Shown one piece after another: positions 81 through 33,546 of a DNA stretch of 33,546 nt; position 1 is the first letter of the stretch; each line of letters starts with the position of its first letter. The DNA lies in the NCBI GenBank assembly GCA_018812765.1, contig JAHJDB010000013.1:1-33546 (forward strand). Reading direction: 5' to 3'. Position numbers and translations under genes: made by a program. Source of the stretch: Nanobdellota archaeon (GTDB lineage: Archaea > Nanobdellota > Nanobdellia > Woesearchaeales > GW2011-AR9). A model generated the notes under the pieces. It made no database searches and was not told the origin of the DNA. It saw only the letters and a list, made by a program, of their open reading frames with translations.

Positions 81-218
81 GTGCGCGTGCCGGAGTGGTC
101 AAACGGGATGGACTCAAGGCATTGGAGTGATGAGTGCTCATCAGAGTGCGATGACTAAACTCTTTGTAAGTCATCCATTGGCTTAGTGCCTACGCAGGTT
201 CGAGCCCTGCCGCGCACA
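81..218 (+). tRNA. tRNA-Leu (anticodon CAA), class II, with a 54-nt intron at the canonical 37/38 position
   Basis: Manual cloverleaf. Acceptor 81-87 GTGCGCG pairs with 211-217 CGCGCAC. D-stem 90-92/104-106, with A14 and G18G19. Anticodon stem 108-112 ATGGA / 174-178 TCCAT. Loop CTCAAG+A with CAA at 115-117. Long variable arm 179-193. T-arm GCAGG-TTCGAGC-CCTGC at 194-210. Discriminator A218, no encoded CCA. Confidence 0.85.
119..172 (+). other. tRNA intron with relaxed bulge-helix-bulge geometry
   Basis: Removing 119-172 restores a 7-nt anticodon loop. Central helix 113-116 CTCA vs 167-170 TAAG gives 3 of 4 pairs with one C:A mismatch, flanked by 3-nt bulges 117-119 and 171-173. An internal hairpin lies at 128-143. 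Confidence 0.65.
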
Positions 219-247: not shown

Positions 248-447
248 AATAAACGAGAAATCCTGAAAACCGACTACCCAACGGAGCAAGCTCTGGGGTA
301 TACAAAATGGGAAAGAACATCCCCTTTGTACGCAAAAGGAATCTTTGTTCCTTTTCGCGTTCGCCGGTTTTCTAATCGGATTTCTGGTCATTCCTCGCTA
401 AATACCGCAGCAAGCTGCAGGGTATTAGACCCAGCGAGGAATAAACC
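248..447 (+). repeat. 200-nt structured repeat, copy 1 (unclassified; candidate ncRNA or MITE-like element)
   Basis: Co-linear with 7190-7389 (offset 6942), differing at 5 positions (294, 324, 419, 420, 422). Manual folding gives seven helices. The element begins and ends with AATAAAC. Confidence 0.8.
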
Positions 448-2766: not shown

Positions 2767-4002
2767 ATGGATAATAAAACTGTAGAAATCATGGCTCCAG
2801 CAGGAAACTTTGAATCATTAAGAGCGGCGATCAAAGCAAGGGCTAATTCTGTTTATTTTGGTGTTGGGCAATTAAACATGCGGGCTAGAGCGGCTAATAA
2901 CTTTTCAATTGATGACCTGAAAGAGATTGTAACCATCTGTAAAGAACATGAAGTTAAGACCTATCTTACCCTTAACATAGTCCTTTATGATGAAGACCTT
3001 GCTTCCATGAAAAAGATCTGCCAAGAAGCAAAAAAATCAGGAGTTACGGCAGTAATCGCTTCTGATCTGGCAGCCATACAATATGCTCATTCGATCGGTC
3101 TAGAGGTGCACCTCTCTACCCAAGCAAATATCAGCAATATTGAAGCGGTAAGATTCTATGCTCAATTTGCAGATGTAGTAATACTAGCAAGAGAACTTAA
3201 CCTTGAACAGATCAAGACAATTGTCAAAGAAATTGAAACCCAAGACCTCAGAGGCCCTAAAGGGAACTTGATAGAGATAGAATTATTTATACATGGGGCT
3301 TTATGCGTATCAATCTCGGGGAAATGTTACATGAGCCTAGCATCTTACAATTTCTCTGCCAACCGGGGAGAATGTCTGCAATCCTGCCGAAGAGCTTATA
3401 GAATTATTGATGAAGAAACAGGAGACGAATTAAAGATAGAAAATAAATATGTCATGTCTCCGAAAGATCTTTGTACCATCTCCGTCTTAGATCAGTTATT
3501 AGATACAGGAATAAAAATTCTTAAGATCGAAGGGAGAGGAAGATCGCCAGAATATGTTTATACGGTTGTGAAAACTTACCGAGAGGCGGTTGATAAATAT
3601 CTTGCCGGAACTTATAACCAGAAGAAAGTTAAAGGGTGGGTGAAAGAATTGGAAACTGTATTCAACCGAGGATTCTGGCAAGGTGGTTACTATTTAGGAA
3701 ATAAGCTTGGAGAATGGTCCGGCACTTATGGTTCAAAAGCGACCAAGAAAAAAATACAAGTAGGAATCGTAAAAAATTATTTCAGTAAAAAAGGGGTGGG
3801 AGAATTTCAGATTGAAGCAGGAGAGATAAAAGTAGGTGACGAAATCTCAATCACCGGGCCAACCACAGGAGTAATAATTATAAAAGTTGAAAGTATTTTT
3901 TTAAATGAAAGAAGTGTTGGTTTGGCAAAAAAAGGAGTTAGGATCACTATTCCAGTTCCAGAAAAAATAAGGCCTAACGATAAACTATTTGTTTTAGTTT
4001 AG
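2767..4002 (+). CDS. Peptidase U32 family protein (Fe-S type; possibly an RNA/quinone hydroxylase-like member)
   Basis: N-terminal MAPAGN...LRAAI..ANSVYFG and KIEGR are typical of U32. A four-Cys cluster C-x6-C-x15-C-x3-C is encoded at 3304-3387. Start placed at ATG 2767; the track starts at a TTG at 2758. Confidence 0.75.
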   Translation: MDNKTVEIMAPAGNFESLRAAIKARANSVYFGVGQLNMRARAANNFSIDDLKEIVTICKEHEVKTYLTLNIVLYDEDLASMKKICQEAKKSGVTAVIASDLAAIQYAHSIGLEVHLSTQANISNIEAVRFYAQFADVVILARELNLEQIKTIVKEIETQDLRGPKGNLIEIELFIHGALCVSISGKCYMSLASYNFSANRGECLQSCRRAYRIIDEETGDELKIENKYVMSPKDLCTISVLDQLLDTGIKILKIEGRGRSPEYVYTVVKTYREAVDKYLAGTYNQKKVKGWVKELETVFNRGFWQGGYYLGNKLGEWSGTYGSKATKKKIQVGIVKNYFSKKGVGEFQIEAGEIKVGDEISITGPTTGVIIIKVESIFLNERSVGLAKKGVRITIPVPEKIRPNDKLFVLV

Positions 4003-5751: not shown

Positions 5752-7122
5752 TTAATAATTTTTCTCAAGATGGTCCACCAGACTTTTATAATCTAGCATC
5801 TTAAATTTGTAAGATTCTTCTTTTGAATCAGACAACACGATGGTACTAGATTCTGGCCTGGAAGAATCAATAATGATTTTATATGCTTCTTCATAAGTAA
5901 AATTATGGTTGTGTTTCTTGCCATAATCAACAACAACAGCTAAAGCAGCCGCTACAAACGGACCACTAAAAGATGTCCCGCTCCAAAACTGGTTTTCGCT
6001 GGCGCTTTTAGTAGAATAAACAAAATGTCCTGGAGCAAAGACCGGAGCATCAAGATCAGAAAAATCAGCAATTTCTCCTCTAATAGTAGTAGCTCCAACG
6101 CTAATTACGTAAGGGCTGCCACAAGGAAGTTGTTCTGGATCCATCTTGTGAGTATAATAACTGTCATTTCCTGAAGAAGCTTCAATAAGGATGCCTTTTT
6201 TAGCGACTCTTTCCAGAGCCTCACCTAAAACTTTGTTGGCGTCATTCCAGGACATACCTTCCACCTCCTTTGGTTCAGAAAGGCCCCAGCTGTTATTAAG
6301 TACATCCAGATTATCGGCTATTGCCTGATCAAATCCTTCTAAGATATTAGTAAGAGAATTGAAACCTTCTAAATCATGGATTTTATAGACAAAAATTTCC
6401 GCCTCGGGAACAACCTTGTTGATTATGCCTGTAACAAATGTTCCATGACCAAAATCATCGTAAACTTTCTTCTGATTGTAAACGAAATCATGAAATCCTT
6501 TAATCTGGCTTTTAAATTGAGTCACTTCTGGATCTACACCAGTGTCAAGAACACCTATCCTGACTCCTTTTCCAGTGAGACCTTTCGATTTTGGAGCCTC
6601 AGCATGAGTAACTCGATGAGCCCAATAATCTTTCATCTCTGGAACGGGATCCTGGTCATCATCTTTTGCATAAAAGAAAGTTGGAAATTTTCTCTTTTCC
6701 GGATTAGAGCCCCCATGACGAACATAACACTTTAATTTCCCTTCTGTGACTAATTTATCGAGAGTAAAACTACAGGCATTTACTCGAGAAGCTTCCAAAT
6801 AATCAAAATCTTGGACTAAATTCAAAGAGTTATTTTGGAGATTAGAAAGAGAAGTAAATATTTTCTTTGAATCTTGTCCTTCAGCGGCAAAGGTAAGATA
6901 ATCTTTTTTCTCGCAATTTTGAAGAATCTCTTCTTCAATTTTAGAGCTAATCCTTTCTACTACTTCCTTGATACCTTTTTTCGCTGACAAAGGATAATCT
7001 GAAGAAGCTTTATTTTTATTCTTTGACTGAGTTTCAACCGTAAGAGGGATTAAGGTAAGATATGCTGCTGCCGCTCCACCTAATATTGAAGTCAAAACCA
7101 AACCTGTTTTTTTAATAATCAT
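5752..7122 (-). CDS. Secreted or membrane-anchored subtilisin-like serine protease (S8 family)
   Basis: Catalytic triad motifs VLDTGVD, HGTFVTG and GTSFSGPFVAA. N-terminal hydrophobic segment. Perfect SD AGGTGAT (reverse complement of 7127-7133) lies 4 nt upstream of the ATG. Confidence 0.85.
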   Translation of the reverse strand: MIIKKTGLVLTSILGGAAAAYLTLIPLTVETQSKNKNKASSDYPLSAKKGIKEVVERISSKIEEEILQNCEKKDYLTFAAEGQDSKKIFTSLSNLQNNSLNLVQDFDYLEASRVNACSFTLDKLVTEGKLKCYVRHGGSNPEKRKFPTFFYAKDDDQDPVPEMKDYWAHRVTHAEAPKSKGLTGKGVRIGVLDTGVDPEVTQFKSQIKGFHDFVYNQKKVYDDFGHGTFVTGIINKVVPEAEIFVYKIHDLEGFNSLTNILEGFDQAIADNLDVLNNSWGLSEPKEVEGMSWNDANKVLGEALERVAKKGILIEASSGNDSYYTHKMDPEQLPCGSPYVISVGATTIRGEIADFSDLDAPVFAPGHFVYSTKSASENQFWSGTSFSGPFVAAALAVVVDYGKKHNHNFTYEEAYKIIIDSSRPESSTIVLSDSKEESYKFKMLDYKSLVDHLEKNY

Positions 7123-7189: not shown

Positions 7190-7389
7190 AATAAACGAGA
7201 AATCCTGAAAACCGACTACCCAACGGAGCAAGCTCCGGGGTATACAAAATGGGAAAGAACATCCCATTTGTACGCAAAAGGAATCTTTGTTCCTTTTCGC
7301 GTTCGCCGGTTTTCTAATCGGATTTCTGGTCATTCCTCGCTAAATACCGCAGCAAGCTGCGAGATATTAGACCCAGCGAGGAATAAACC
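7190..7389 (+). repeat. 200-nt structured repeat, copy 2
   Basis: 195/200 identical to 248-447, in the same orientation. It lies between the start of the S8 protease gene and the stop of ribL, both on the minus strand. Confidence 0.8.
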
Positions 7390-7446: not shown

Positions 7447-7866
7447 CTAAAGTTCAAAAATATTTTTTCGGATTAAAGTTGACTTGTATTTTTCAGCGTG
7501 ATAAGGCTTCATCCTTCTTATTTCAGGATCAAGGTTAAGTTCATTCAGCCTTTCTTTTAATTCCTCTTCCTTGATTTTATGATCATAACCTAGACAGATC
7601 AAATCAGGTTTTTTCTCTAAAATTATTTTGAAATGGTTCTCCAAAGAACCTAAAACGGCTTCATCAACCATCTTCAGACTTTGAATGATTTCCAGCCTTT
7701 CTCCTTCAGAAAAGATTAATTTTTTACTCTCCTTTTCTTTGGTTTTGTCTCTAGCAATTACAACGATTAAATAATGGCCTAGTTTCTTAGCCTCTTTTAA
7801 GTAATTTAAATGACCTAAATGGAGAAGATCAAAAGTACCAAAACACATCACTTTATTTTTTTTCAT
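7447..7866 (-). CDS. ribL: Cytidylyltransferase-fold nucleotidyltransferase, most like archaeal FAD synthetase RibL
   Basis: 139 aa. GTFDLLHLGHLNYL (HxGH) and IVVIARD match M. jannaschii RibL as I recall it. A TagD-like enzyme cannot be excluded. Confidence 0.6.
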   Translation of the reverse strand: MKKNKVMCFGTFDLLHLGHLNYLKEAKKLGHYLIVVIARDKTKEKESKKLIFSEGERLEIIQSLKMVDEAVLGSLENHFKIILEKKPDLICLGYDHKIKEEELKERLNELNLDPEIRRMKPYHAEKYKSTLIRKNIFEL

Positions 7867-7927: not shown

Positions 7928-10087
7928 TTATTTATCTATCAAATGAGCTTTTTTTATGATTAATCTAGCAGTATTCTGGTCTTCTTCAAGAACCTCTACT
8001 TTTTCAAGAACCAGAGCTTTTTTGAATAAAGGGCAGTCCAACACTAAAGATTCGAATTCCCCACCTTCGCCAGCCTGATGGAAGCCAAATTTTTTGTTTA
8101 GTTTTTTTAGTTCCTCCAATTCTTTCTGGGTGATTATCTTGTTTAACCAGGATTTATCTAAACCTTCTGCTGCCACTGAAGTCATCATAAATTTAAAATC
8201 GTGATCTAATAATTCCTGCATCAACTGTTCTTGAGGTTTATGCCATAAAGGAGAAAAGATTTTCAGACCTAATTGGTCACCTGTTTTTTCAATCCGGTCT
8301 CTTTGATAGGTTGAAAAAACTGCTCCGGTGATGAGGCCGTTAATCTGATGTTTTTTCTTGGCTGTAAGGAGAGCTTGTTCCAGGTCTTTCAATTCAACTT
8401 CTTTTTTTCCTTCTGTTTCCTGGATGATGATGGGAAGCTGCAGGGCTTCTGCCTGTAACTCTGCTAACTCTATAGCGGGAGTGTGGAACAGGTAAGAATC
8501 AGGATTCTTGGATTTGAGAGTAATAAGACAAGAAAGCTGATAATTCTGTTTCTGCATAATGTAAGCAGAATAAGTTGAATCTTTCCCACCAGAAAAAAGG
8601 ACCCCTAACCGGAGATTATGTTCAGGATAGAAAGTCTTAAGATAAGATGATTTAGAAGAAAAACCAGTTTGTTTAGCTAATCTTCCTAAAGCATAATCAA
8701 ACCTAGATCCATACTGGGCAGCAGTCTTTTTTCGGAAAGAAAATTCTTCTGGAATTTTTTTTGATAAAGAAATCTCACGAAGAATAAATTTTGAAACATT
8801 GTCTTTAACCTTATACTTCTCAGGAATCTTTAGAGCATAATCAACTAGCCTCTTATCTAAAAAAGGAAGACGCAGCTCTAAGTTATTGTCCATGGTAAGC
8901 ACATCATCTCGATAAAGATCTCTTTCATACATCTTTCTTAATCCAGAAAGACATTCTTGGTTAATGTTAGAAGAATTTTTATGACGTTCATAGCCGGCAA
9001 AAATCTCCTCGCTCCCTAGTCCTGAAAAAATAATTTTACAGCCATCTTCTTTAGCTAATTCGCAAGCAAGGTAAAACGTTAAAGCTACCCCTACCTTGAC
9101 AACATTAGAATCTTCTATCAAGGGAATTATTTTTTTCAGATATATGGGTAAATCTTGCACTTTGATTTTTTTTATTTTTAAGTCTAAACCAAATTCTTCT
9201 GAAGCTTTTTTAGCATAAACTAAATCTGAAGGAAGAACAGTAGAAAGACTTTCCTCCGTTTCCAAGACAGCAGTATAACAAGTAAAATCATATCTCTGAT
9301 CCTTAAAATATTTGGCTAAATAAGTAGAGTCTATTCCTCCTGAAAACAATAAGCCGAATTTCTTGGAGGGAATTCTTTTTCTGATTGCTTCGTCTAAAAG
9401 AGCTTGAGTTTTTTTTTTAAATTCTACATAACTGTCTTTATGTTCAGGCAGATAACTAAAAAAACCTCTTAATAAAAATTGGATCTCTCTCTTCTTCAGA
9501 TCATAAACTATCATCTGTCTAGGGTTAAGTTCTTGAATATCCAAATACCCTATCTTCTCTAAAGCTTTCCTCTCTGAAGCGAAAGCAAAATTATCTGAGC
9601 CCTGAGAAAACCATAAAGGCTTTACTCCCATCAGGTCCCTCGCTAAATAAACCCGGTCATCGTCCCAATAAGCAAAAGCATAAACTCCATCAAGTTCATC
9701 AAGTTTCTGCAGTTTAAATTTATCTAAAAACTGTAATAACAGTTCAGCATCATTTTTAGAATTAAAACCGTATTTCTCATTAAGCTCTTTCCAGTTATAA
9801 ATTTCACAATTAGCCGTAAGTGTTCCTTTGCCTTTAATGGGCTGAGGAATATGGTCAACAATTGCATGTAAGGAATGTCCTAAAAAGTTTGGAGGGGTTT
9901 CTGTTGTTTCCTTTGATTCTTTTTTTTCTTTTGGTTCTTTAAAGTTTTTTAAGTCCTGATCATGTTGAAGATAGCTTAAAGAAGAAATACCAAAACCGTC
10001 TTTTCCGCGATTCTTTAAAACAGCTAAAGCTGTCTTTACTTGCTTAAACGCGTCCTGGTTGTTGAAAACTCCAACTATTCCACACAT
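7928..10087 (-). CDS. Fusion: class-II glutamine amidotransferase + asparagine-synthase-type PP-loop domain + second PP-loop ATP-pyrophosphatase domain (MJ0570/Dph6-like)
   Basis: MCGIVG with catalytic Cys2, and NCEIYN. First PP-loop LLFSGGIDST is encoded near 9325-9355. AsnB-like LRLPFLD is present. Second PP-loop VLFSGGKDST is encoded near 8575-8600. The C-terminal ~230 aa contain EGGEFES. Confidence 0.75.
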   Translation of the reverse strand: MCGIVGVFNNQDAFKQVKTALAVLKNRGKDGFGISSLSYLQHDQDLKNFKEPKEKKESKETTETPPNFLGHSLHAIVDHIPQPIKGKGTLTANCEIYNWKELNEKYGFNSKNDAELLLQFLDKFKLQKLDELDGVYAFAYWDDDRVYLARDLMGVKPLWFSQGSDNFAFASERKALEKIGYLDIQELNPRQMIVYDLKKREIQFLLRGFFSYLPEHKDSYVEFKKKTQALLDEAIRKRIPSKKFGLLFSGGIDSTYLAKYFKDQRYDFTCYTAVLETEESLSTVLPSDLVYAKKASEEFGLDLKIKKIKVQDLPIYLKKIIPLIEDSNVVKVGVALTFYLACELAKEDGCKIIFSGLGSEEIFAGYERHKNSSNINQECLSGLRKMYERDLYRDDVLTMDNNLELRLPFLDKRLVDYALKIPEKYKVKDNVSKFILREISLSKKIPEEFSFRKKTAAQYGSRFDYALGRLAKQTGFSSKSSYLKTFYPEHNLRLGVLFSGGKDSTYSAYIMQKQNYQLSCLITLKSKNPDSYLFHTPAIELAELQAEALQLPIIIQETEGKKEVELKDLEQALLTAKKKHQINGLITGAVFSTYQRDRIEKTGDQLGLKIFSPLWHKPQEQLMQELLDHDFKFMMTSVAAEGLDKSWLNKIITQKELEELKKLNKKFGFHQAGEGGEFESLVLDCPLFKKALVLEKVEVLEEDQNTARLIIKKAHLIDK

Positions 10088-24143: not shown

Positions 24144-25703
24144 ATGAAAGGAAGGTGGATAGAAGTAATGATCACTTCAGTATGCATGCTTTTCTTAACT
24201 ACGGTTGTTTTATACATTTATCCTCCGGGGGGAATTACCGGTTATATCATTGCTCAAGGAGGAAATGTTACAGAAGCGAATTTATCTAGCGCAAAAAGTT
24301 CTGATTATTGGCATGGTTTTTATGGACAGATCTTAGTTGATCCTGGTACAACTAGCACTCCTACTTCTTTAGCAACAGGGGGCTCGATGACTGAATTTAA
24401 CTTAACTTTCTCTTGCAGTCCACCTCATATTTATGCTTCAGCAGAATATCCTTCTAACTTAAATCCAATTACTAAAGGAAATGTAACTGCTCTTGACAAT
24501 TATCTCGGATTAAATGCAAGCCATCCCGAATCTGGGACAAGCATCTTTACTAATCTAACAGATAACTTTATTATTAATGGAACTGTTCTTCTGAATGTTC
24601 CTGTTGCTTATACTTTAGTCAATAATCTTTCCAACACTACTTTTGATCTAGGTTTGATGGATTCGGAAGAAACTTTATATTTTACAACACATAATGTAAG
24701 TGATAAACCTGGATTTAACAGCCAACTTTTAGATTATCAAATGATGGTTCCGGTAAATCAAAGCAGCCTCACTTATTATTTTTATTCCGACTGTCCTGTT
24801 TCAAACTGTTCAGCCCCAAGTGGTTTTGTAGGAAGTTTGAATGCCTTTTTACATGACGATAATAAAAGTGTTGATCTGAATTGGAGCGGAACAAGCGACT
24901 CTTTTAGAGTTTATTATTCAACTAACATTTCCGCCATAGTTAATCTCGATACTAACAATGTTCATTCTTCGGTCACAGTTGTAAATGGAATTACAGATAA
25001 TAATTGGACAGACTATAATGCTTCCCTAGATCAAAAAAGATACTATACTGTCGCAGCAGTCTCAGGTAGTTGTATCAGTGCTATCAATGATACTTGGGGC
25101 AAATTTACTTATTATTATGAAGCGCCAGTTTCCTCTATTTTTGGATCTTTATCTTCTGACAGAATTGCTATCTACCTAAATGTCAGCTATGACGCGGAAA
25201 CTTTTTTACAAGGTATTCCTGATTCTTTTAACCCGACCATCTCCAGATTAGATAAATCTAATGTTTCCGGAGAATTCTTTACTACCCATGTTAAAGGACT
25301 AAACGATGGAAATAATTTTGATTTGGAGATTATTAAAGGATATCAATTAACTGTAGATGGTTATTTTAACCAGACTATTGTAGGAAGAATCATGCCCACA
25401 CCATACATCTTAAATTATGAAACTCCTTATTCCAGTTTTTATGGAACTTTGGCCACCAATTGGAATGGAATATATGATTTTAATAGAACTTATTCAGCGG
25501 AAAGCTTCCTTCAAGATATCCCCCCTTCCTTAAACCCGACCATCTCAAGATTAGATAAATCCGATGCCTCCGGAGAATTCCTAACCACTCATGTCAGAGG
25601 ACTGAACGATGGGAATAATTTTAATATAGACTTAGGAATTGGATATGCTATTACTGTAGATGATAATTTCAATCACACCCTTTGTACAAACTGTTTTGAT
25701 TAA
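24144..25703 (+). CDS. Secreted or anchored sequon-rich protein with a C-terminal tandem ~101-aa duplication; function unknown
   Basis: N-terminal hydrophobic helix and many N-x-S/T sites. Units at 25110-25412 and 25413-25700 share NPTISRLDKS..SGEF.TTHV.GLNDGNNF. ATG 24168 is an alternative start, preceded by AAGGTGGA at 24152-24159. Confidence 0.55.
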   Translation: MKGRWIEVMITSVCMLFLTTVVLYIYPPGGITGYIIAQGGNVTEANLSSAKSSDYWHGFYGQILVDPGTTSTPTSLATGGSMTEFNLTFSCSPPHIYASAEYPSNLNPITKGNVTALDNYLGLNASHPESGTSIFTNLTDNFIINGTVLLNVPVAYTLVNNLSNTTFDLGLMDSEETLYFTTHNVSDKPGFNSQLLDYQMMVPVNQSSLTYYFYSDCPVSNCSAPSGFVGSLNAFLHDDNKSVDLNWSGTSDSFRVYYSTNISAIVNLDTNNVHSSVTVVNGITDNNWTDYNASLDQKRYYTVAAVSGSCISAINDTWGKFTYYYEAPVSSIFGSLSSDRIAIYLNVSYDAETFLQGIPDSFNPTISRLDKSNVSGEFFTTHVKGLNDGNNFDLEIIKGYQLTVDGYFNQTIVGRIMPTPYILNYETPYSSFYGTLATNWNGIYDFNRTYSAESFLQDIPPSLNPTISRLDKSDASGEFLTTHVRGLNDGNNFNIDLGIGYAITVDDNFNHTLCTNCFD

Positions 25704-27057: not shown

Positions 27058-27309
27058 ATGCTGGCGTACTTGGAAGGCCTTGTTGATAGAAAGACTTTAG
27101 CTATTATTACTGCCCTTCATAGTAAACCAGACCAATTATTTCATCTAAATTCTTTAGCGCAAGAAGCAAAGGTACCAGTCACTTCTACAGCGAGAATCAT
27201 CAAGAAACTTGTAGCAAAATCTTTTGCAGAAGAAATCAAAGTAGGGAAACTTTCCCTCTATAAATTAGCTGATAACAACAAAAATAAGGAGATCGGTAAA
27301 TTAATATGA
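27058..27309 (+). CDS. Small winged-helix (MarR/ArsR-like) DNA-binding protein
   Basis: 83 aa. LAIITALHSKPDQLFHLNSLAQEAKVPVTSTARIIKKLVAKSFAEEIKVGKLSLYKL fits a helix-turn-helix plus wing. The stop overlaps the next ATG (ATGA at 27306-27309). Confidence 0.6.
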   Translation: MLAYLEGLVDRKTLAIITALHSKPDQLFHLNSLAQEAKVPVTSTARIIKKLVAKSFAEEIKVGKLSLYKLADNNKNKEIGKLI

Positions 27310-30300
27310 ATAAAAAGAAAATGATGTTATTCCTGTATCTCTTCTTCCTAGTTTTATCAGCTAGTTTTACCCTTGCTCTCACCAAACCTATTGCTGGGTT
27401 TGTCTTCCAGAATGATTCTTCTATTGCCCAAAATGCCACCATGACTGTTTATGTTAATATTTCCATTATGGCCGGTAATTTTACTTGCCACATTGTACCG
27501 AGTGTGTTTAGTGGAGGAGACGGTTCCTTCTCCACAAACTTAGCTAACTTAAAATTTTCTGATAACAGTGATTGTAGTGGATCCTGGGAAACAGGAGACC
27601 TTATCTGGGCGGAAGGAAATGGATCTACAGTGATTCCTAGTATACAAGGAAATGGAATTAGCACACCAGAAGGAATAGAATCGGGAACTGGATTGCAATA
27701 TATAGGTAATGTCACTTTAGCTCCTGGACCAGATCTTACTGCGCCGATAGTACAGCTAATCTCTCCAGCAAACGGTTCTGTAACAACTACCGGAAATGTT
27801 ATCTTTAGCTATAATGTTACAGATAATTCATCCATCGCTAATTGCAGCTTGATCTTCAACGGAGTAATCAATGAAACTGACACGACTGTCACGAAAGATA
27901 TCACTCAAGACTTTACCAAAACTAATTTGCCTGACGGATTGTTAAATTGGTCCATTAATTGTACGGATAGTTCCGGAAATAGGAATGGAACAGAAACATG
28001 GATCTTAAATATCTCCAAGATTGGAATCTTGCAAGCAACTCTAATCAATCCTACTACTGATATTTCTGTCCTCAAGAATCAATTCTTCACTTTTATCGCT
28101 CAAGTAACCTGTGTAGGGGGAAGCTGTGGAAATGTTAACGCTACTCTTGATCCTATCACTTTTGAAAAGAAGAAAGTTTCCTTCTTTACTAAAATTCTTT
28201 ATTTACTGAAAGATATCTTCAATGGAAATCTGATCACCGGAATGGTGACCGGAGGGGTAGTGCCTACCACTCCTTCCACTCCTTTCTGGACCAATTCTTC
28301 TAATCCGGCTAACTCTGCAGATTTCCCCTGCCTTGCTAATATGCTAGAGGGTTCCAGTTGTAACACAACCTGGTATGTTAATGCCACAGGAGGAGTGGAA
28401 ACTGTCCACGAATTCTTTGCTTTCTTCAATTCTACGACTTATCTAGATGTAAGTAATGAAACTGCCCATGTCAATATTACCATCACCGAACAGAATAACC
28501 CTCTGGTTTTTGATCTGATACCTTTAGCGAACACAAGTTTCAACATCTCCACAGGTATAGAAATTGGAGCAAATGTTACAGATGATAACAATGTTTCTGT
28601 AGTTCTAGCGAACATAACTTTCCCGAACGGGACAAGACAACAGATAACTTTATCTAACACCTTAGGTGATAAGTATAATGGCACTTTTACCATACCTAAC
28701 TTGAAAGGCCAATTTAATGTTGTTTTTATCGCCAATGATACTTCTAATAATATCAACAATACTGAAACGACTTTCTTTGTAGGAGTAGATAATAATAATC
28801 CATCTATATTTAATCTTATACCTACAGCAGGAAGCTCATTTAACATCTCCACCAGTATCCAAATTGCTGCTGACGTTACTGATGATGTGGGAGTGAGTGT
28901 AGTCACAGCTAATATTACTTTCCCGAATGGAACGGTACAACAAATAACTTTAAGTTCAGCTATAGGTGCAAAATATAACAATTCCTTCGCTATTCCTCTC
29001 TTGTTAGGGCAATATAACATCACCTTTAGGGCTAACGATACCAGCAACAACATCAATGATACAGAAAGCACTTACTTCCTAGCCGTCGATAATGTAGCTC
29101 CCGTGTTCTCCAACATTGTAGAGTCTCCTACTGACCCGACCACTTATAGTCCAGGAAGAGTTTACTTCTTTAACATTACCTGGACAGATAACATTGCGAT
29201 GGGAACAGTAATCATCCAATTTAACGGAACAAATTTCACTTCAGAAGTACAGAACATCAGCAGTGTCTATATGTTCAACAGGACGGATTTGGCCGTAGGA
29301 ACTTATAATTACACTTGGTTTGCCAATGACACTTCTGGAAACCTTAACCAAACTACTCAGACTTATACCATCAACAAAGCGGTCTCGGAAGTGAACCTAA
29401 CCTTGAACGGAGCTGACGCCAACATTAACGTAGAAGTAGGGTCGATAGTAAATATTACGGGTACAAGAGTTACCGGCGAAGGAGAGATCCAACTATACAG
29501 GAATGGTACTTTGATCAATTCGGGAGCACCAATTATTTCAAATTTGTCGACGTTCAGCTCTTTAGGTGTGTTTAACATCACTGTAATTTATACGGCTACA
29601 CAGAATTATACTGCCAGCCAGGAAACACATCTTGTTACCGTTGGAGATGCTACGCCGCCAAACGTAACTAACGTAACCGCTAATCCTAATATCATCAACC
29701 AAACACAAGTTACAGAAATCAATGCCACGGTTGTGGATAATGTAGAAGTGGATGTAGTCATCGCCCAGATCACTTTCCCGAACGGAACAAAGATCAATCA
29801 GACCATGACTAACGTCTCTGCTCAGTATTCTACTACATTTAATACCACGTTGACTTCTCCGATCGGAATTTATAATGTTTCAATCTTCGCCAACGATACC
29901 AGCAATAACAAAAATTATACAGAAACAACTACCTTTACAGTAATTGATGATACTCCGCCAAACGTAACGGCCTTAAGGCCATTGAACGGAACAGTCTTTA
30001 ATGTCTCAAACGTGATTGAAATTGCCGCAAATGTGACTGATAATATCGGAGTAAGTGTTGTTACGGCTAATATCACTATGCCGAATGGAACTGTGCAACA
30101 GCTAACTTTAAATCATACTATCGGTGCAAAATATAACAATTCTTTTACTATCCCTTTGGTAATAGGACAATATAACATTACAATCATTGCTAATGATACC
30201 AGCAACAATATCAATGATACAGAAAAAACTTCTTTTGTTGCCAACGATACTGGTTTCCTTTACGTGAGGATCATTAACCCTCTCTCTTTTAGTAACTTTG

Positions 30301-32867
30301 CTCAAAACACAGGAGTATTAATCACAGCTCTGGTTGAAGATAATGTTGCTGTTGATACTGTACTTGCTAATGTTACCACCCCTAATTCTTCCAGTTTCCT
30401 GTTAGAACTTGGTTATCACGGTGTAGACGATATCTATAATGTAACTTTCACCCATACCGAAATTACCGGCATTTATAATGTCAGGATTATCGCCAATGAT
30501 ACTTCCAATAATATTAACGACACTGTAACTAGAAACTTTAATGTCCAGGCTGCTGATATTCCTTTAGTAAGTTTAGTCTCTCCTGCCAACGGAGCTGCTT
30601 CCAATAATAACACCGTCATCTTTACTTGTAATGCCAGCGATGATGAACGCATAATCAATATAACCCTTTACCACAATATAAGCGGTTCTTTTGCAGCAAA
30701 CCAAACCGTTAATGTTTCAGGAGCATCTAACCAGACTAGTTTCATCGTAGATAATGTAGTTGAAGGAACCTATGCCTGGAACTGTTTAGCTGTAGATAAC
30801 CAAAGCCATTCTGTCTTTGCCCTGGTTAATTTCACCTTTACTATCGATCAGAAACCGCCGAATGTTACAAATCTCTCTCCGATCCAAAATAGTACTTTTA
30901 CAATCGGCTCTTCCCTGAACATTAATGCTACAGTCAAGGATGATGTTTCTGTGGATACAGTTTTAGCGAACATAACTCTTCCTAACGGAACAGTACAACA
31001 ATTAATCTTAACGGATGATAATTCCGACGATATCTATAACTCTTCGTTTACAATACCTTTGCTAACTGGAACTTACAACATTACATTCATCGCTAATGAT
31101 ACAGCTGGAAATATCAATAACACTGAAAAAACTAATTTCATCGCCCCAGGGATTGATACCTCTCCTAATATTACCCTAGTCTCACCAGCCAACGGCGCTT
31201 CTTTTGAAACTAGTACCACTACTGACGTTATTTTCTTCTGTAATGCTACCGACGATTCATCACTAATCAACTTGTCTTTATATATAACCAGCTCAAGCAA
31301 CACTAATTTTAATTTAAGTCAGACCTTTAATGTCAGTGGAACTTCTAACAGCAGCAATTGGACCTTAACCTTAACTCAAGGAAGCTATACCTGGAACTGT
31401 CTTGCTTACGATAATTCCTCTCAGTCCTCTTTCGCTAGCTCGAACCGAACCTTAACCGTTAGTGCTCCTGCACCTGCTCCCTCTCCTGGAGGCGGAGGAG
31501 GAGGTGGGGGAGGAGGAGGAGGCGGTGGCTTCATAGCTCCATGTACAGAAGATTGGGAGTGTGGGGATTGGTCTCCTCAAGAATGTCCTCCTTCAGAGAT
31601 ACAGACTAGAACCTGTACTGATCTAAATGGATGTGGGGCGACAGATGATAAACCTCCTGAAACAAGGACTTGTGAGTACAAAAAATTGAAAAAAATAGAT
31701 TTAGCCATCATTGATTACCCTCAAAGCATAGGCCTAAAAGAAAAGCCTACTGTTAAAATAAAAGTGAGCAATACTGGCAGTGAGCAATTGAAAGAGCTAG
31801 TATTAAATTTTGAAATCAGTCCAGGCTGGTCAAAACCTCAAAATGTTTCTATCCCAGTTTTAGACGTTGGAGAAACTACAACTATTGATGTGGAGATCGA
31901 GAATGAAATCTGTACTTCAGAAGAAGAATTGATCCTCCCTCCAAAGATGGAATTGACTGCTGCTGTTGAAGGAAACGGAGTAAAAGACCAGGATTCAATC
32001 TTACTTCCACTGAATGTTTCTTCTGGCTTAAGTGTATCGACAGATAAAAACAGTTATTTTAGCGGAGAAAACATGAGAGTTTGCATCTTCTATTACAATG
32101 ACGGCCAAGAAGATTTGGACGAGCTGGAATTTGATGTCTTGATCCAGTCGCTTAAAGATGGGGACTTTTTAAAAGTGGACCATGTCTTCTCTTTCCAATC
32201 CTCTAAGAATGAACTATTAGCGGTAAGAAAAAATATCCTACTGGATAAAGTTTTTGCAACTGCTGATTATAACCTGATAATAGAAATGTTTAACGGTGAA
32301 AGATTCTCCAAAGAAGATAAAATTGATGAAGCAGAAACAAAGGTATTCATAAATGGATTTATCGAACAGAAGATTTTAGGAGAACCGGGCCTAAATTATA
32401 CCACCCTGTATAATTTAGAAGAACATACCTTAACTGTGAATGGTTTTGATGATACTTTTGCTTATATCACCTTCCAGTCATCCCCACAGAATTATACTTT
32501 GATATTACTAGAAGAAAAAACTCTCCTGGACAGCTTAAGTGCAATTTATCTGGGCGAAAAAGAAGAATATGAAGAAGGCAAGTTAATTAAAAAAGCTGAT
32601 ATCAGATTAAGATGGAAAGAAAGAAAAGAAGAAGCGGTGGCTGGTTCAGATTATCAAATAATTGATTTAGATAAAGGAACTGAAGCAGTTGGCTTGAAAA
32701 AAGGAAGTTCTTTCCCAATTATATTACTCTGGGTAATCATAACTTTAATAATCGCATTGATCATGGCCATAATTTCCTGGATCCATCACCATTGGATCCT
32801 TGAAGGAAGAAAAATAAAAGTTGAGAAGATCAGCAAATTAAAAATTTTCCAGAAGAAAAGGGAATAG
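27306..32867 (+). CDS. 1853-aa surface protein: signal peptide, shared head domain, ~100-aa Ig-like repeat array, Gly14 linker, Cys-rich module, CARDB-like region, C-terminal TM anchor
   Basis: The signal peptide ends in FTLALTKPIAG. ANITFPNGT-type units sit at aa 435, 535, 820, 921, 1021 and 1221. SPANG...CNA(S/T)DD...WNC units sit at aa 153, 1092 and 1293. Gly14 lies at 31489-31530, the six-Cys module at 31531-31680, and the TM helix at 32712-32783, followed by HHH. Confidence 0.8.
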   Translation: MNKKKMMLFLYLFFLVLSASFTLALTKPIAGFVFQNDSSIAQNATMTVYVNISIMAGNFTCHIVPSVFSGGDGSFSTNLANLKFSDNSDCSGSWETGDLIWAEGNGSTVIPSIQGNGISTPEGIESGTGLQYIGNVTLAPGPDLTAPIVQLISPANGSVTTTGNVIFSYNVTDNSSIANCSLIFNGVINETDTTVTKDITQDFTKTNLPDGLLNWSINCTDSSGNRNGTETWILNISKIGILQATLINPTTDISVLKNQFFTFIAQVTCVGGSCGNVNATLDPITFEKKKVSFFTKILYLLKDIFNGNLITGMVTGGVVPTTPSTPFWTNSSNPANSADFPCLANMLEGSSCNTTWYVNATGGVETVHEFFAFFNSTTYLDVSNETAHVNITITEQNNPLVFDLIPLANTSFNISTGIEIGANVTDDNNVSVVLANITFPNGTRQQITLSNTLGDKYNGTFTIPNLKGQFNVVFIANDTSNNINNTETTFFVGVDNNNPSIFNLIPTAGSSFNISTSIQIAADVTDDVGVSVVTANITFPNGTVQQITLSSAIGAKYNNSFAIPLLLGQYNITFRANDTSNNINDTESTYFLAVDNVAPVFSNIVESPTDPTTYSPGRVYFFNITWTDNIAMGTVIIQFNGTNFTSEVQNISSVYMFNRTDLAVGTYNYTWFANDTSGNLNQTTQTYTINKAVSEVNLTLNGADANINVEVGSIVNITGTRVTGEGEIQLYRNGTLINSGAPIISNLSTFSSLGVFNITVIYTATQNYTASQETHLVTVGDATPPNVTNVTANPNIINQTQVTEINATVVDNVEVDVVIAQITFPNGTKINQTMTNVSAQYSTTFNTTLTSPIGIYNVSIFANDTSNNKNYTETTTFTVIDDTPPNVTALRPLNGTVFNVSNVIEIAANVTDNIGVSVVTANITMPNGTVQQLTLNHTIGAKYNNSFTIPLVIGQYNITIIANDTSNNINDTEKTSFVANDTGFLYVRIINPLSFSNFAQNTGVLITALVEDNVAVDTVLANVTTPNSSSFLLELGYHGVDDIYNVTFTHTEITGIYNVRIIANDTSNNINDTVTRNFNVQAADIPLVSLVSPANGAASNNNTVIFTCNASDDERIINITLYHNISGSFAANQTVNVSGASNQTSFIVDNVVEGTYAWNCLAVDNQSHSVFALVNFTFTIDQKPPNVTNLSPIQNSTFTIGSSLNINATVKDDVSVDTVLANITLPNGTVQQLILTDDNSDDIYNSSFTIPLLTGTYNITFIANDTAGNINNTEKTNFIAPGIDTSPNITLVSPANGASFETSTTTDVIFFCNATDDSSLINLSLYITSSSNTNFNLSQTFNVSGTSNSSNWTLTLTQGSYTWNCLAYDNSSQSSFASSNRTLTVSAPAPAPSPGGGGGGGGGGGGGGFIAPCTEDWECGDWSPQECPPSEIQTRTCTDLNGCGATDDKPPETRTCEYKKLKKIDLAIIDYPQSIGLKEKPTVKIKVSNTGSEQLKELVLNFEISPGWSKPQNVSIPVLDVGETTTIDVEIENEICTSEEELILPPKMELTAAVEGNGVKDQDSILLPLNVSSGLSVSTDKNSYFSGENMRVCIFYYNDGQEDLDELEFDVLIQSLKDGDFLKVDHVFSFQSSKNELLAVRKNILLDKVFATADYNLIIEMFNGERFSKEDKIDEAETKVFINGFIEQKILGEPGLNYTTLYNLEEHTLTVNGFDDTFAYITFQSSPQNYTLILLEEKTLLDSLSAIYLGEKEEYEEGKLIKKADIRLRWKERKEEAVAGSDYQIIDLDKGTEAVGLKKGSSFPIILLWVIITLIIALIMAIISWIHHHWILEGRKIKVEKISKLKIFQKKRE
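28500..31488 (+). repeat. In-frame array of ~300-nt (100-aa) domain repeats inside the giant gene
   Basis: The GC(G/T)AA(C/T)AT(A/T/C)ACT...CC(G/T)AA(C/T)GG anchor starts at 28608, 28908, 29763, 30066, 30366 and 30966. The spacings are 300, 855, 303, 300 and 600 nt. Units at 28800-29099 and ~29960-30260 remain clearly similar at the DNA level. Confidence 0.8.
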
Positions 32868-33209: not shown

Positions 33210-33351
33210 GAAAAAAAGAAAGTAAACGTTTAAGATCATTGAAATCTTTTAAAATTAGTTGAGAAAAAAGAAGTAAACCCATGTTTAAAACAGATTTCTT
33301 AAAAATGAAGATAGAGATTTAAGCTTGATATTTTAATGGCATAGTAGAAAA

Positions 33352-33491
33352 GTCGTCGTCATGGCCTCAAAGAGGTAAAATCTGCTAAGAGATAATTTAG
33401 TCATAATTAAGTTCCGAGCCAATAATAATTGAGAAAAGGTATTTTTCCTATTTCCCTTTCAGGCTCGGGAGATTTTACTGGCCAAGATGAC
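33352..33491 (+). ncRNA. Candidate ~140-nt structured RNA or long imperfect hairpin (unclassified)
   Basis: Nested helices: 33355-33366/33480-33491 (11 bp, one A:A mismatch), 33375-33383/33470-33478 (9 bp) and 33414-33420/33462-33468 (7 bp). TATA-like ATATTTTAAT at ~33328-33337 lies ~25 nt upstream. A T7 run follows at 33492-33498, but it may belong to another TATA+GAGC promoter (33493-33505). Confidence 0.3.
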
Positions 33492-33546
33492 TTTTTTTAT
33501 AGAGCCAATTTTAACAAAAGTTTTTTTATAATTTACTCTATATCCA

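Follow-up and report, generated by a model that had tools for sequence, protein, structure and literature searches.

A 200-nt element occurs twice in a 33,546-nt stretch of DNA from a Nanobdellota archaeon (assembly GCA_018812765.1, contig JAHJDB010000013.1, positions 1 to 33,546; here called the window). With a probability that we put at roughly 0.6, it belongs to a family of modular palindromic repeats that are interspersed and non-coding, occur in Woesearchaeota/Nanoarchaeota (DPANN archaea), persist and spread as DNA in the manner of selfish or mobile elements, and are not RNA genes. The original prediction had offered two readings, a functional non-coding RNA family and a structured non-autonomous mobile element, the latter exemplified by a palindrome-associated transposable element (PATE) of the IS200/IS605 type or an orphan guide-RNA scaffold. 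The mobile-element reading holds in its general form, supported by dispersal in multiple copies, turnover of modules, differing positions in syntenic genomes, an unfixed orientation and overlap with open reading frames (ORFs), whereas the PATE and guide-RNA specifics were not borne out.

Copies A (248-447) and B (7190-7389) of the window (winA and winB) are co-linear, have the same orientation and align without gaps with 195 identical positions out of 200. The differences lie at 295 (T/C), at 326 (C/A) and, in three cases, within 421-424. Identity ends abruptly at both borders and the flanks are unrelated. Hence, the copies are not part of a larger segmental duplication, a possibility that had been named as fatal to the prediction. 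Both are intergenic in the gene map of the window, as had been proposed. Copy A is located 30 nt downstream of an intron-containing tRNA (81-218) and 90 nt upstream of the RNase J gene (538-1872). Copy B is flanked by two minus-strand genes, one for an S8 peptidase, which starts at 7122, and one for a cytidylyltransferase, whose stop is at 7447. All assemblies of the window strain have an element at the copy-B locus. The window's genes are of the archaeal housekeeping kind, among them those for PCNA, RNase J, diphthamide synthase, DRG GTPase and TyrRS, and homologues of the RNase J are labelled Woesearchaeota or Nanoarchaeota in their source records.

The element begins and ends with AATAAAC (248-254 and 440-446). 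Terminal inverted repeats were not found, in agreement with the earlier reading: AATAAACGAGAAATCC at the 5' end bears no relation to GTTTATTCCTCGC, the reverse-complemented 3' end. The accompanying statement that target-site duplications are missing needs qualification, since the terminal AATAAA(C) direct repeat is conserved in the family and hence is a candidate target or duplication sequence. The claim that the longest plus-strand ORF has 22 aa is likewise only part of the picture; one plus-strand frame is free of stops through the whole element, but it lacks a start codon.

At least 17 further distinct members were found in Woesearchaeota/Nanoarchaeota contigs by scans of sequence collections and one protein-database look-up (L-numbers denote fetched genome or metagenome loci, P-numbers NCBI-annotated ORFs). 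A metagenome scan with a central 20-mer gave ten true loci, nine of them distinct, as L015 equals L008 in sequence. Seven true loci in metagenome-assembled genomes (MAGs) labelled Woesearchaeota, Nanoarchaeota or 'archaeon' came from a genome scan with an 18-mer, together with chance matches in bacteria. The would-be peptide of the element had one match in the protein database, which led to one more genome; the count from this search is uninformative on abundance, because the word index missed P0121 too. No match was obtained in a genome scan with the 23-mer CGGTTTTCTAATCGGATTTCTGG, because this pattern spanned the variable inner helix. Viral contigs searched with three patterns yielded no member, and the 14-base pattern gave only chance matches there, which nhmmer rejected. 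In total, at least 20 copies of this small, non-coding, dispersed element are located at unrelated loci. Identity is 95-98% within a genome or sample (copies A and B; L025/L032; L013/L011/L014) and 84-94% between them. Three canonical members (L020, L025, L032) come from records of an 'uncultured Methanosarcinales archaeon', with 35-39% GC like the Woesearchaeota loci; the label or the binning of these records may be wrong.

The canonical layout is (A)ATAAAC, [G/CA]AGAAATCC, insert 1, GGATTTCTGG, TCA, TTCCTCGC, insert 2 and GCGAGGAATAAA, the first fixed block directly after (A)ATAAAC being GAGAAATCC. The scaffold thus consists of two adjoining stem-loops, P1 (AGAAATCC/GGATTTCT) and P2 (TTCCTCGC/GCGAGGAA), with AATAAA on both sides. 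Their loops hold a variable load of smaller hairpins of two kinds. The first kind is similar to the units of repetitive extragenic palindromic (REP) sequences: a GC-rich palindrome of 5-6 bp (loop AA or AGA) is followed by GGGTATT, and one or two such units are present per element. In the fetched DNA this combination is found practically nowhere outside the elements. The second kind is a two-hairpin module of about 60 nt. Both the 5' ATAAAC-AGAAATCC and the 3' GAGGAATAAA are conserved, though they lie outside the search pattern. The features of the window copies and of a second subfamily are collected in the table.

Table. Positions of the two window copies, of the parts of the element (numbered in copy A) and of a second subfamily
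Feature	Position	Strand	Remarks
Copy A	248..447	+	Full-length form with core, inner helix, GCAAGC hairpin, 59-nt two-hairpin module and second domain; nhmmer E 6.6e-39
Copy B	7190..7389	+	195/200 identical to copy A, flanks unrelated; nhmmer E 4.2e-38
5' AATAAAC	248..254	+	(A)ATAAAC in 18/19 members read, L024 having ATAAAT; supplies the upstream gene's stop codon in L015, L025 and L027
P1 5' arm AGAAATCC	256..263	+	Pairs with 378-385; 100% paired, invariant across the family
Inner helix P1b 5' arm GAAAACCG	265..272	+	Pairs with 365-372; covaries, 6/10 pairs changed on both sides
Unit 1: palindrome CGGAG-CAAG-CTCTG, then GGGTA(T) tag	282..300	+	Apex is the site of the IS-like insertion in GCA_043813405.1
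59-nt two-hairpin module	302..360	+	Missing from the copy-B allele of GCA_043813405.1; relatives in other members and outside the family
Core junction GGATTTCTGG-TCA-TTCCTCGC (P1 3' arm, linker, P2 5' arm)	378..399	+	In all canonical members, but doubled as search pattern
Unit 2: palindrome GCAG-CAAG-CTGC, then GGGTATTAGACCC	407..432	+	4/6 pairs changed on both sides
P2 3' arm AGCGAGGAAT, overlapping the 3' AATAAAC direct repeat	433..446	+	3 pairs changed on both sides, 97% paired
Second subfamily, three copies (GCA_053532315.1)	L048:9892-9998, 3058-3151, 1-82	+, -, -	Palindrome-plus-GGGGTATT units, AAATAAA borders, without the P1 core

Insert 1 may be as short as a 5-nt loop (L027) or as long as about 135 nt (L011), and the whole element measures from 70 nt (L027) over 90 nt (L024) to 259 nt (L015), depending on the presence or absence of hairpin modules. 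The modules of about 60 nt come and go between copies that are otherwise nearly identical. Thus, L011 equals L013 plus one such module in domain 1, and L015 and L010 carry one in domain 2. The 59-nt module is absent from the copy-B locus of GCA_043813405.1, though 10 kb of flanking DNA is 99.99% identical to the window. Stand-alone modules of the type found at 302-360 of the window are present in other intergenic contexts at L009:6920-6985 (plus strand) and L012:3230-3300 (minus strand), flanked by GGT(A)...(G)TATGG-like sequence. The module of about 60 nt may be an independent tiny mobile or structural unit. A TA duplication was considered as a general rule for its insertion; it fits L011, L015 and L010 and fails for the window module and for L009:6920-6985.

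The window strain is also represented by NCBI assembly GCA_043813405.1 and by several Logan and ENA assemblies, in all of which contigs end inside the element; short-read assemblies fragment within it. The copy-B locus of GCA_043813405.1 contains an insertion like that of an insertion sequence (IS) in the apex of hairpin 1 (L001:16697-16817, L004:10585-10646), with a perfect terminal inverted repeat of at least 62 nt (CAATGTCATTAAG...; CAATGTCATTAAGTTAAGC...) and a 10-bp duplication, CGGAGCAAGC. Its absence from the window assembly makes the IS-like insertion a polymorphism in a population with 99.99% identity elsewhere. The end of an ORF (...RKKHYMNQRRAM*) reads inward from the end of the inserted DNA.

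Local density can be high: four elements of two subfamilies are located within 10.5 kb of GCA_053532315.1. A canonical copy and one of the second subfamily form a tandem there, and about 500 nt away in L048 is a gene for a tyrosine recombinase (8571-9371).

Comparison with related genomes indicates that positions are not kept. In a relative with a 78% identical RNase J, the orthologous spacer between the tRNA and the RNase J gene is 62 nt long and free of the element, and a profile search of about 100 kb from relatives found no member. L008/L015 is syntenic with the window (mechanosensitive channel, GTPase, diphthamide synthase, cytidylyltransferase) at about 70% nucleotide identity. There, the element stands at the 3' end of the GTPase gene, where the same spacer in the window is empty (43 nt); conversely, the spacer after the cytidylyltransferase gene, which is the site of copy B, is empty in L008/L015 (55 nt). 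Borders of the element often fall on gene ends. In three members (L015, L025, L027) the upstream gene terminates at the TAA within the 5' AATAAAC. AATAAA is present at both ends of all copies and the bases outside do not repeat, except in L011, where 10 nt repeat outside AATAAA, possibly by chance. Such a fixed AATAAA could mark identical cleavage sites or, just as well, a specific duplication of 6 bp.

The element is traversed in one and the same frame by two ORFs of the NCBI annotation, P0121 and P0131. In P0121, a LamG protein of 1061 aa, the 156-nt element forms 52 codons between MASKNNRTKKGSV and the membrane anchor, and these 52 residues are missing from P0122, an ortholog 69% identical to P0121. 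An in-frame TTG could be the true start in both cases; it is located inside the element in P0121 and about 13 nt downstream of it in P0131. The two ORFs are at most suggestive of in-frame insertions of the element.

The predicted fold is strong in whatever form it is calculated. As plus-strand RNA, copy A has a minimum free energy of -76.4 kcal/mol (z -7.49), and none of 200 shuffles was as good. This fold recovers the helices of the original prediction to within 1-2 bases: 256-263/378-385 and 265-272/365-372, a hairpin 282-286/291-295 with CAAG loop, two hairpins in 301-359, and the second domain 390-399/433-442 around 407-410/415-418. The minus-strand RNA folds equally strongly (-82.0 kcal/mol, z -7.41), and as DNA each strand reaches -43.8 kcal/mol (z -7.2 and -7.3).

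Covariation was scored on curated sub-alignments of the second domain (A4) and the first domain (A5) against shuffles and slid registers. Both sides had changed in 7 of 16 pairs of the second domain and in 8 of 28 pairs of the first; 93% of the cells were paired in either domain. The score was reached by none of 500 shuffles in each case, and the best slid register paired at most 56% (A4) and 52% (A5). Consequently, the hairpins are kept by selection or by a templating process. A transcribed functional strand normally tolerates G-U and avoids A-C. The mismatches in the plus-strand register comprise 12 G.T and 17 A.C and hence show no asymmetry, and there are zero G-U intermediates in the second domain. 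In 13 of 17 members it is the minus strand whose RNA fold has the lower minimum free energy. Neither test, G.T against A.C or plus against minus folding energy, gave a signal for a strand of action. The mismatch pattern suits palindromic DNA better than a transcribed strand.

For a repeat of this kind we propose the following course of events. New copies would arise at AT-rich intergenic sites that contain AATAAA, often exactly at gene ends. An enzyme acting in trans would recognize the hairpins in single-stranded DNA; it could be a HUH/Y1 transposase of the TnpA(IS200/IS605) kind or of the REP-associated tyrosine transposase (RAYT) kind, or alternatively another recombinase acting at AATAAA. 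Hairpin complementarity would be kept because the enzyme, or a hairpin-templated repair, needs it. Modules would be gained and lost through nested insertion plus slippage across hairpins. Effects on neighboring genes, such as termination, changed mRNA stability or occlusion of the GAGG just upstream of some starts, would be by-products. Since terminal inverted repeats are missing, AATAAA is fixed with variable bases outside it, and the hairpins stand at free spacing, we infer an enzyme of the HUH/Y1 kind that would read single-stranded hairpins and cut at AATAAA.

Several observations weigh against a repeat that spreads as DNA. The usual marks of transposition, i.e. terminal inverted repeats and copy-specific target duplications, are missing. 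A precise empty site, with the same flanks at high identity with and without the element, was not recovered, and the relatives with empty spacers are too diverged (about 70% nucleotide identity) for an alignment of the junctions. A tblastn search of the fetched loci for Y1 transposases, with IS608 TnpA and E. coli RAYT sequences as queries, found nothing. Copy numbers were counted per locus or contig. The invariance of the central 18-mer is partly circular, because it served as the search pattern. A modest bias of orientation exists, as 10 of 15 loci, or about 13 of 18 with the four L048 copies, have the same direction as the downstream gene. In L009 and L010 an ATG follows directly after the 3' AATAAA, with GAGG about 6 nt upstream of the start. 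Finally, stem covariation and conserved unpaired motifs (GGGGTATTAGACCC, the AATAAA ends) would fit a functional RNA too.

Some of these points bear on the first alternative, a functional structured RNA family. This could be a small RNA gene in multiple copies, or else an element that acts in cis on mRNA, as a regulator of translation, a processing site or a stabilizer, and whose P2 helix hides the GAGG ribosome-binding sequence. In addition to the ATG next to AATAAA in L009 and L010, the strong plus-strand fold, significant covariation in four helices and a conserved core with variable periphery, as in many RNAs, argue for it. The genomic context argues in the other direction. Across the loci read, no TATA-like box was found at a fixed upstream distance, so that a conserved archaeal promoter is missing. 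Copy A is flanked by a T7 run just 3' of the tRNA and by a TATA-like box that precedes the RNase J ATG by about 26 nt, which we read as a putative terminator of the tRNA and a putative promoter of RNase J. Copy B and L011 are antisense to both neighbors, and orientation is mixed overall. Orthologous spacers of relatives without the element, different occupied spacers in syntenic genomes, four copies in 10.5 kb, modules present or absent between near-identical copies, and the lack of a wobble asymmetry or of a strand consistently favored in folding energy likewise speak against an RNA gene. Neither the window nor four other members matched an Rfam family at gathering threshold, and the E-value mode, applied to the window, gave only noise on the element; the best sub-threshold match on the element had E 0.13 and 17.9 bits compared with a gathering score of 60. 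With its stems covarying without G-U versus A-C asymmetry and without a conserved promoter, the RNA reading of the original prediction is unsupported. We consider a functional RNA unlikely, and it retains some weight, given that stems covary, unpaired motifs are conserved and orientation is mildly biased.

Several properties would fit a PATE of the IS200/IS605 type, or the remnant of such a transposon in the form of an orphan TnpB/IscB guide-RNA (omega-RNA) scaffold. The element lacks terminal inverted repeats and has hairpins near both ends; (A)ATAAA directly adjoins every copy on the left and also makes up its right end, as would suit identical left and right cleavage sites. Moreover, the two palindrome-plus-tag units are similar, have the same orientation and occupy the left and right halves. 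The left unit, however, is missing in the smallest members, L024 and L027, which at 90 and 70 nt are too small for an omega-RNA scaffold, and the basal hairpins P1 and P2 are dissimilar. No TnpA, TnpB or IscB is present in the window or in any fetched locus; for the window this agrees with the original prediction, as a scan of 20 ORFs against Pfam revealed no transposase, TnpB or IscB domain. The Rfam models IS605-orfB and HEARO were not matched either. An origin of this specific type is improbable.

A more speculative variant, to which we give little credence, is that the family moves via a small circular, rod-like, single-stranded intermediate of DNA, conceivably of RNA, and represents a new type of archaeal mobile element. 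If the 3' and 5' ends were joined at AATAAAC, P2 and P1 would merge into a single uninterrupted duplex, GCGAGGAAUAAACGAGAAAUCC being paired with GGAUUUCUGGUCAUUCCUCGC, with two variable arms. The genomic copy would then be a circle opened at AATAAAC by a site-specific enzyme so far without a link to any known transposon family, and the junction would read ...GCGAGGAATAAACGAGAAATCC.... A still weaker variant of this idea takes the scaffold as a functional RNA domain recruited by the host.

An assembly artefact or a simple recent segmental duplication, suggested at most by the fragmentation of short-read assemblies at the element, has practically no chance of being correct and is refuted by the presence of both loci in independent NCBI, ENA, JGI and Logan assemblies and by diverged members in at least eight other genomes or metagenomes, besides the five differences between the copies and the exact end of identity at the element borders.

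Other identities were rejected on anatomy. RNase P and signal recognition particle (SRP) RNA do not fit, as the conserved regions are wrong and the element is multi-copy with members down to 70 nt; C/D and H/ACA small RNAs (sRNAs) are excluded by the lack of boxes and of a pseudouridylation pocket. The absence of such hallmarks had been correctly stated before. A K-turn does not fit, as the 3-nt bulge is followed by A-U pairs and not by G.A. For an integron attC site the ends are direct instead of inverted, and no RYYYAAC/GTTRRRY pair is present. A core site of a tyrosine recombinase is not compatible with an arm spacing of 5 to 135 nt, and a bulge-helix-bulge (BHB) intron not with flanks unable to pair. 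Hammerhead, twister and hepatitis delta virus (HDV) ribozymes lack their core motifs here and had no Rfam match.

To return to the modular palindromic repeat, the family works like several known systems. The bacterial REP sequences and bacterial interspersed mosaic elements (BIMEs), which are mobilized by RAYT Y1 HUH transposases, are also short, GC-rich, intergenic, multi-copy palindromes with a conserved flanking tag; they form mosaic composites, and their stems covary between subfamilies. REPs are known targets of IS insertion (PMC3733652). They are defined by a GTAG or CGTC tag at one end of the palindrome (PMC3733652). Here, in contrast, the tag is GGGGTAT and lies 3' of the palindrome; the units are direct and not inverted, a larger conserved scaffold of two hairpins with AATAAA borders encloses them, the host is archaeal, and the search of the fetched loci found no RAYT. 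With BOX of Streptococcus pneumoniae (boxA, repeated boxB, boxC) and the enterobacterial repetitive intergenic consensus sequences or intergenic repeat units (ERIC/IRU) the family shares conserved terminal and variable internal modules, a strong predicted fold, and size classes resulting from the presence or absence of internal segments. The sequences are dissimilar as judged by eye only, BOX and ERIC have bacterial hosts, and their ends are mutual inverted repeats, which is not the case here. Rickettsia palindromic elements (RPEs, about 100-150 nt) are palindromic too and can sit in frame in coding genes, as may be the case in P0121 and P0131, whereas most copies of the present family are intergenic and alternative starts inside or after the element are possible in both ORF cases.

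Among archaeal elements, the IS200/IS605-derived PATEs, e.g. of Haloquadratum walsbyi, and the miniature transposable elements with inverted repeats (MITEs) SM1-4 of Sulfolobus are likewise non-autonomous, non-coding and dispersed. PATEs also lack terminal inverted repeats and carry palindromes; the present family is much smaller and more modular, and no parent IS with matching ends is known. Classical MITEs share its small size and multi-copy dispersal, but their terminal inverted repeats and variable target duplications are absent here. Hence, the family resembles REP/BIME, BOX/ERIC, RPE and PATEs in the way it works, and it fails the defining tests of MITEs (ends, duplications) and of REPs (tag). 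A review of prokaryotic MITEs gives archaeal cases only for Sulfolobus, Halobacterium, Haloquadratum and Desulfurococcus (PMC10969869). Our literature searches found no such repeat described for Woesearchaeota or DPANN.

A few further features of the window were noted. The tRNA at 81-218 (plus strand) has the anticodon CAA (Leu, long variable arm) and a 57-nt intron. It was missed by ARAGORN and at the Rfam gathering threshold, and was found by Infernal/Rfam in E-value mode with 42.3 bits. Its intron contains GUGAUGA and CGAUGAC, similar to C and C' boxes, and a weak match to the C/D-box sRNA sR7 (E 1.7); it may encode a C/D sRNA. The L043 ortholog of this tRNA has a second intron in the D-loop region. 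The 1853-aa ORF at 27306-32867 (plus strand) includes diverged tandem repeats with a 300-nt period (Big_7 / Ig-like domains), and the neighboring 519-aa ORF at 24144-25703 (plus strand) contains a 303-nt duplication. A T7 run follows a long nested hairpin at 33339-33503 (plus strand; -47.2 kcal/mol, z -3.2), and several assemblies end there; contigs examined beyond the window all stop at one place. This hairpin had no Rfam match below E 0.4; it could represent a terminator or some structured RNA.

In sum, this is a genuine and new family that is of use for annotation, and probably not a new kind of functional RNA. The genomes of DPANN archaea are very small, and few studies have dealt with their mobile DNA. 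The present repeat reaches several copies per 10 kb and lies exactly at gene boundaries; it may extend into coding regions, is a target of IS insertions and causes breaks in short-read assemblies. Its recognition should improve binning, assembly and annotation, with ORFs like P0121 and P0131 becoming recognizable as spurious or extended. Should the family prove to be an ordinary PATE or REP analogue, it would be a useful yet unsurprising addition. The nested hairpins, fixed AATAAA borders and missing terminal inverted repeats, in turn, may point to a hairpin-recognizing system of single-strand mobilization in DPANN archaea.

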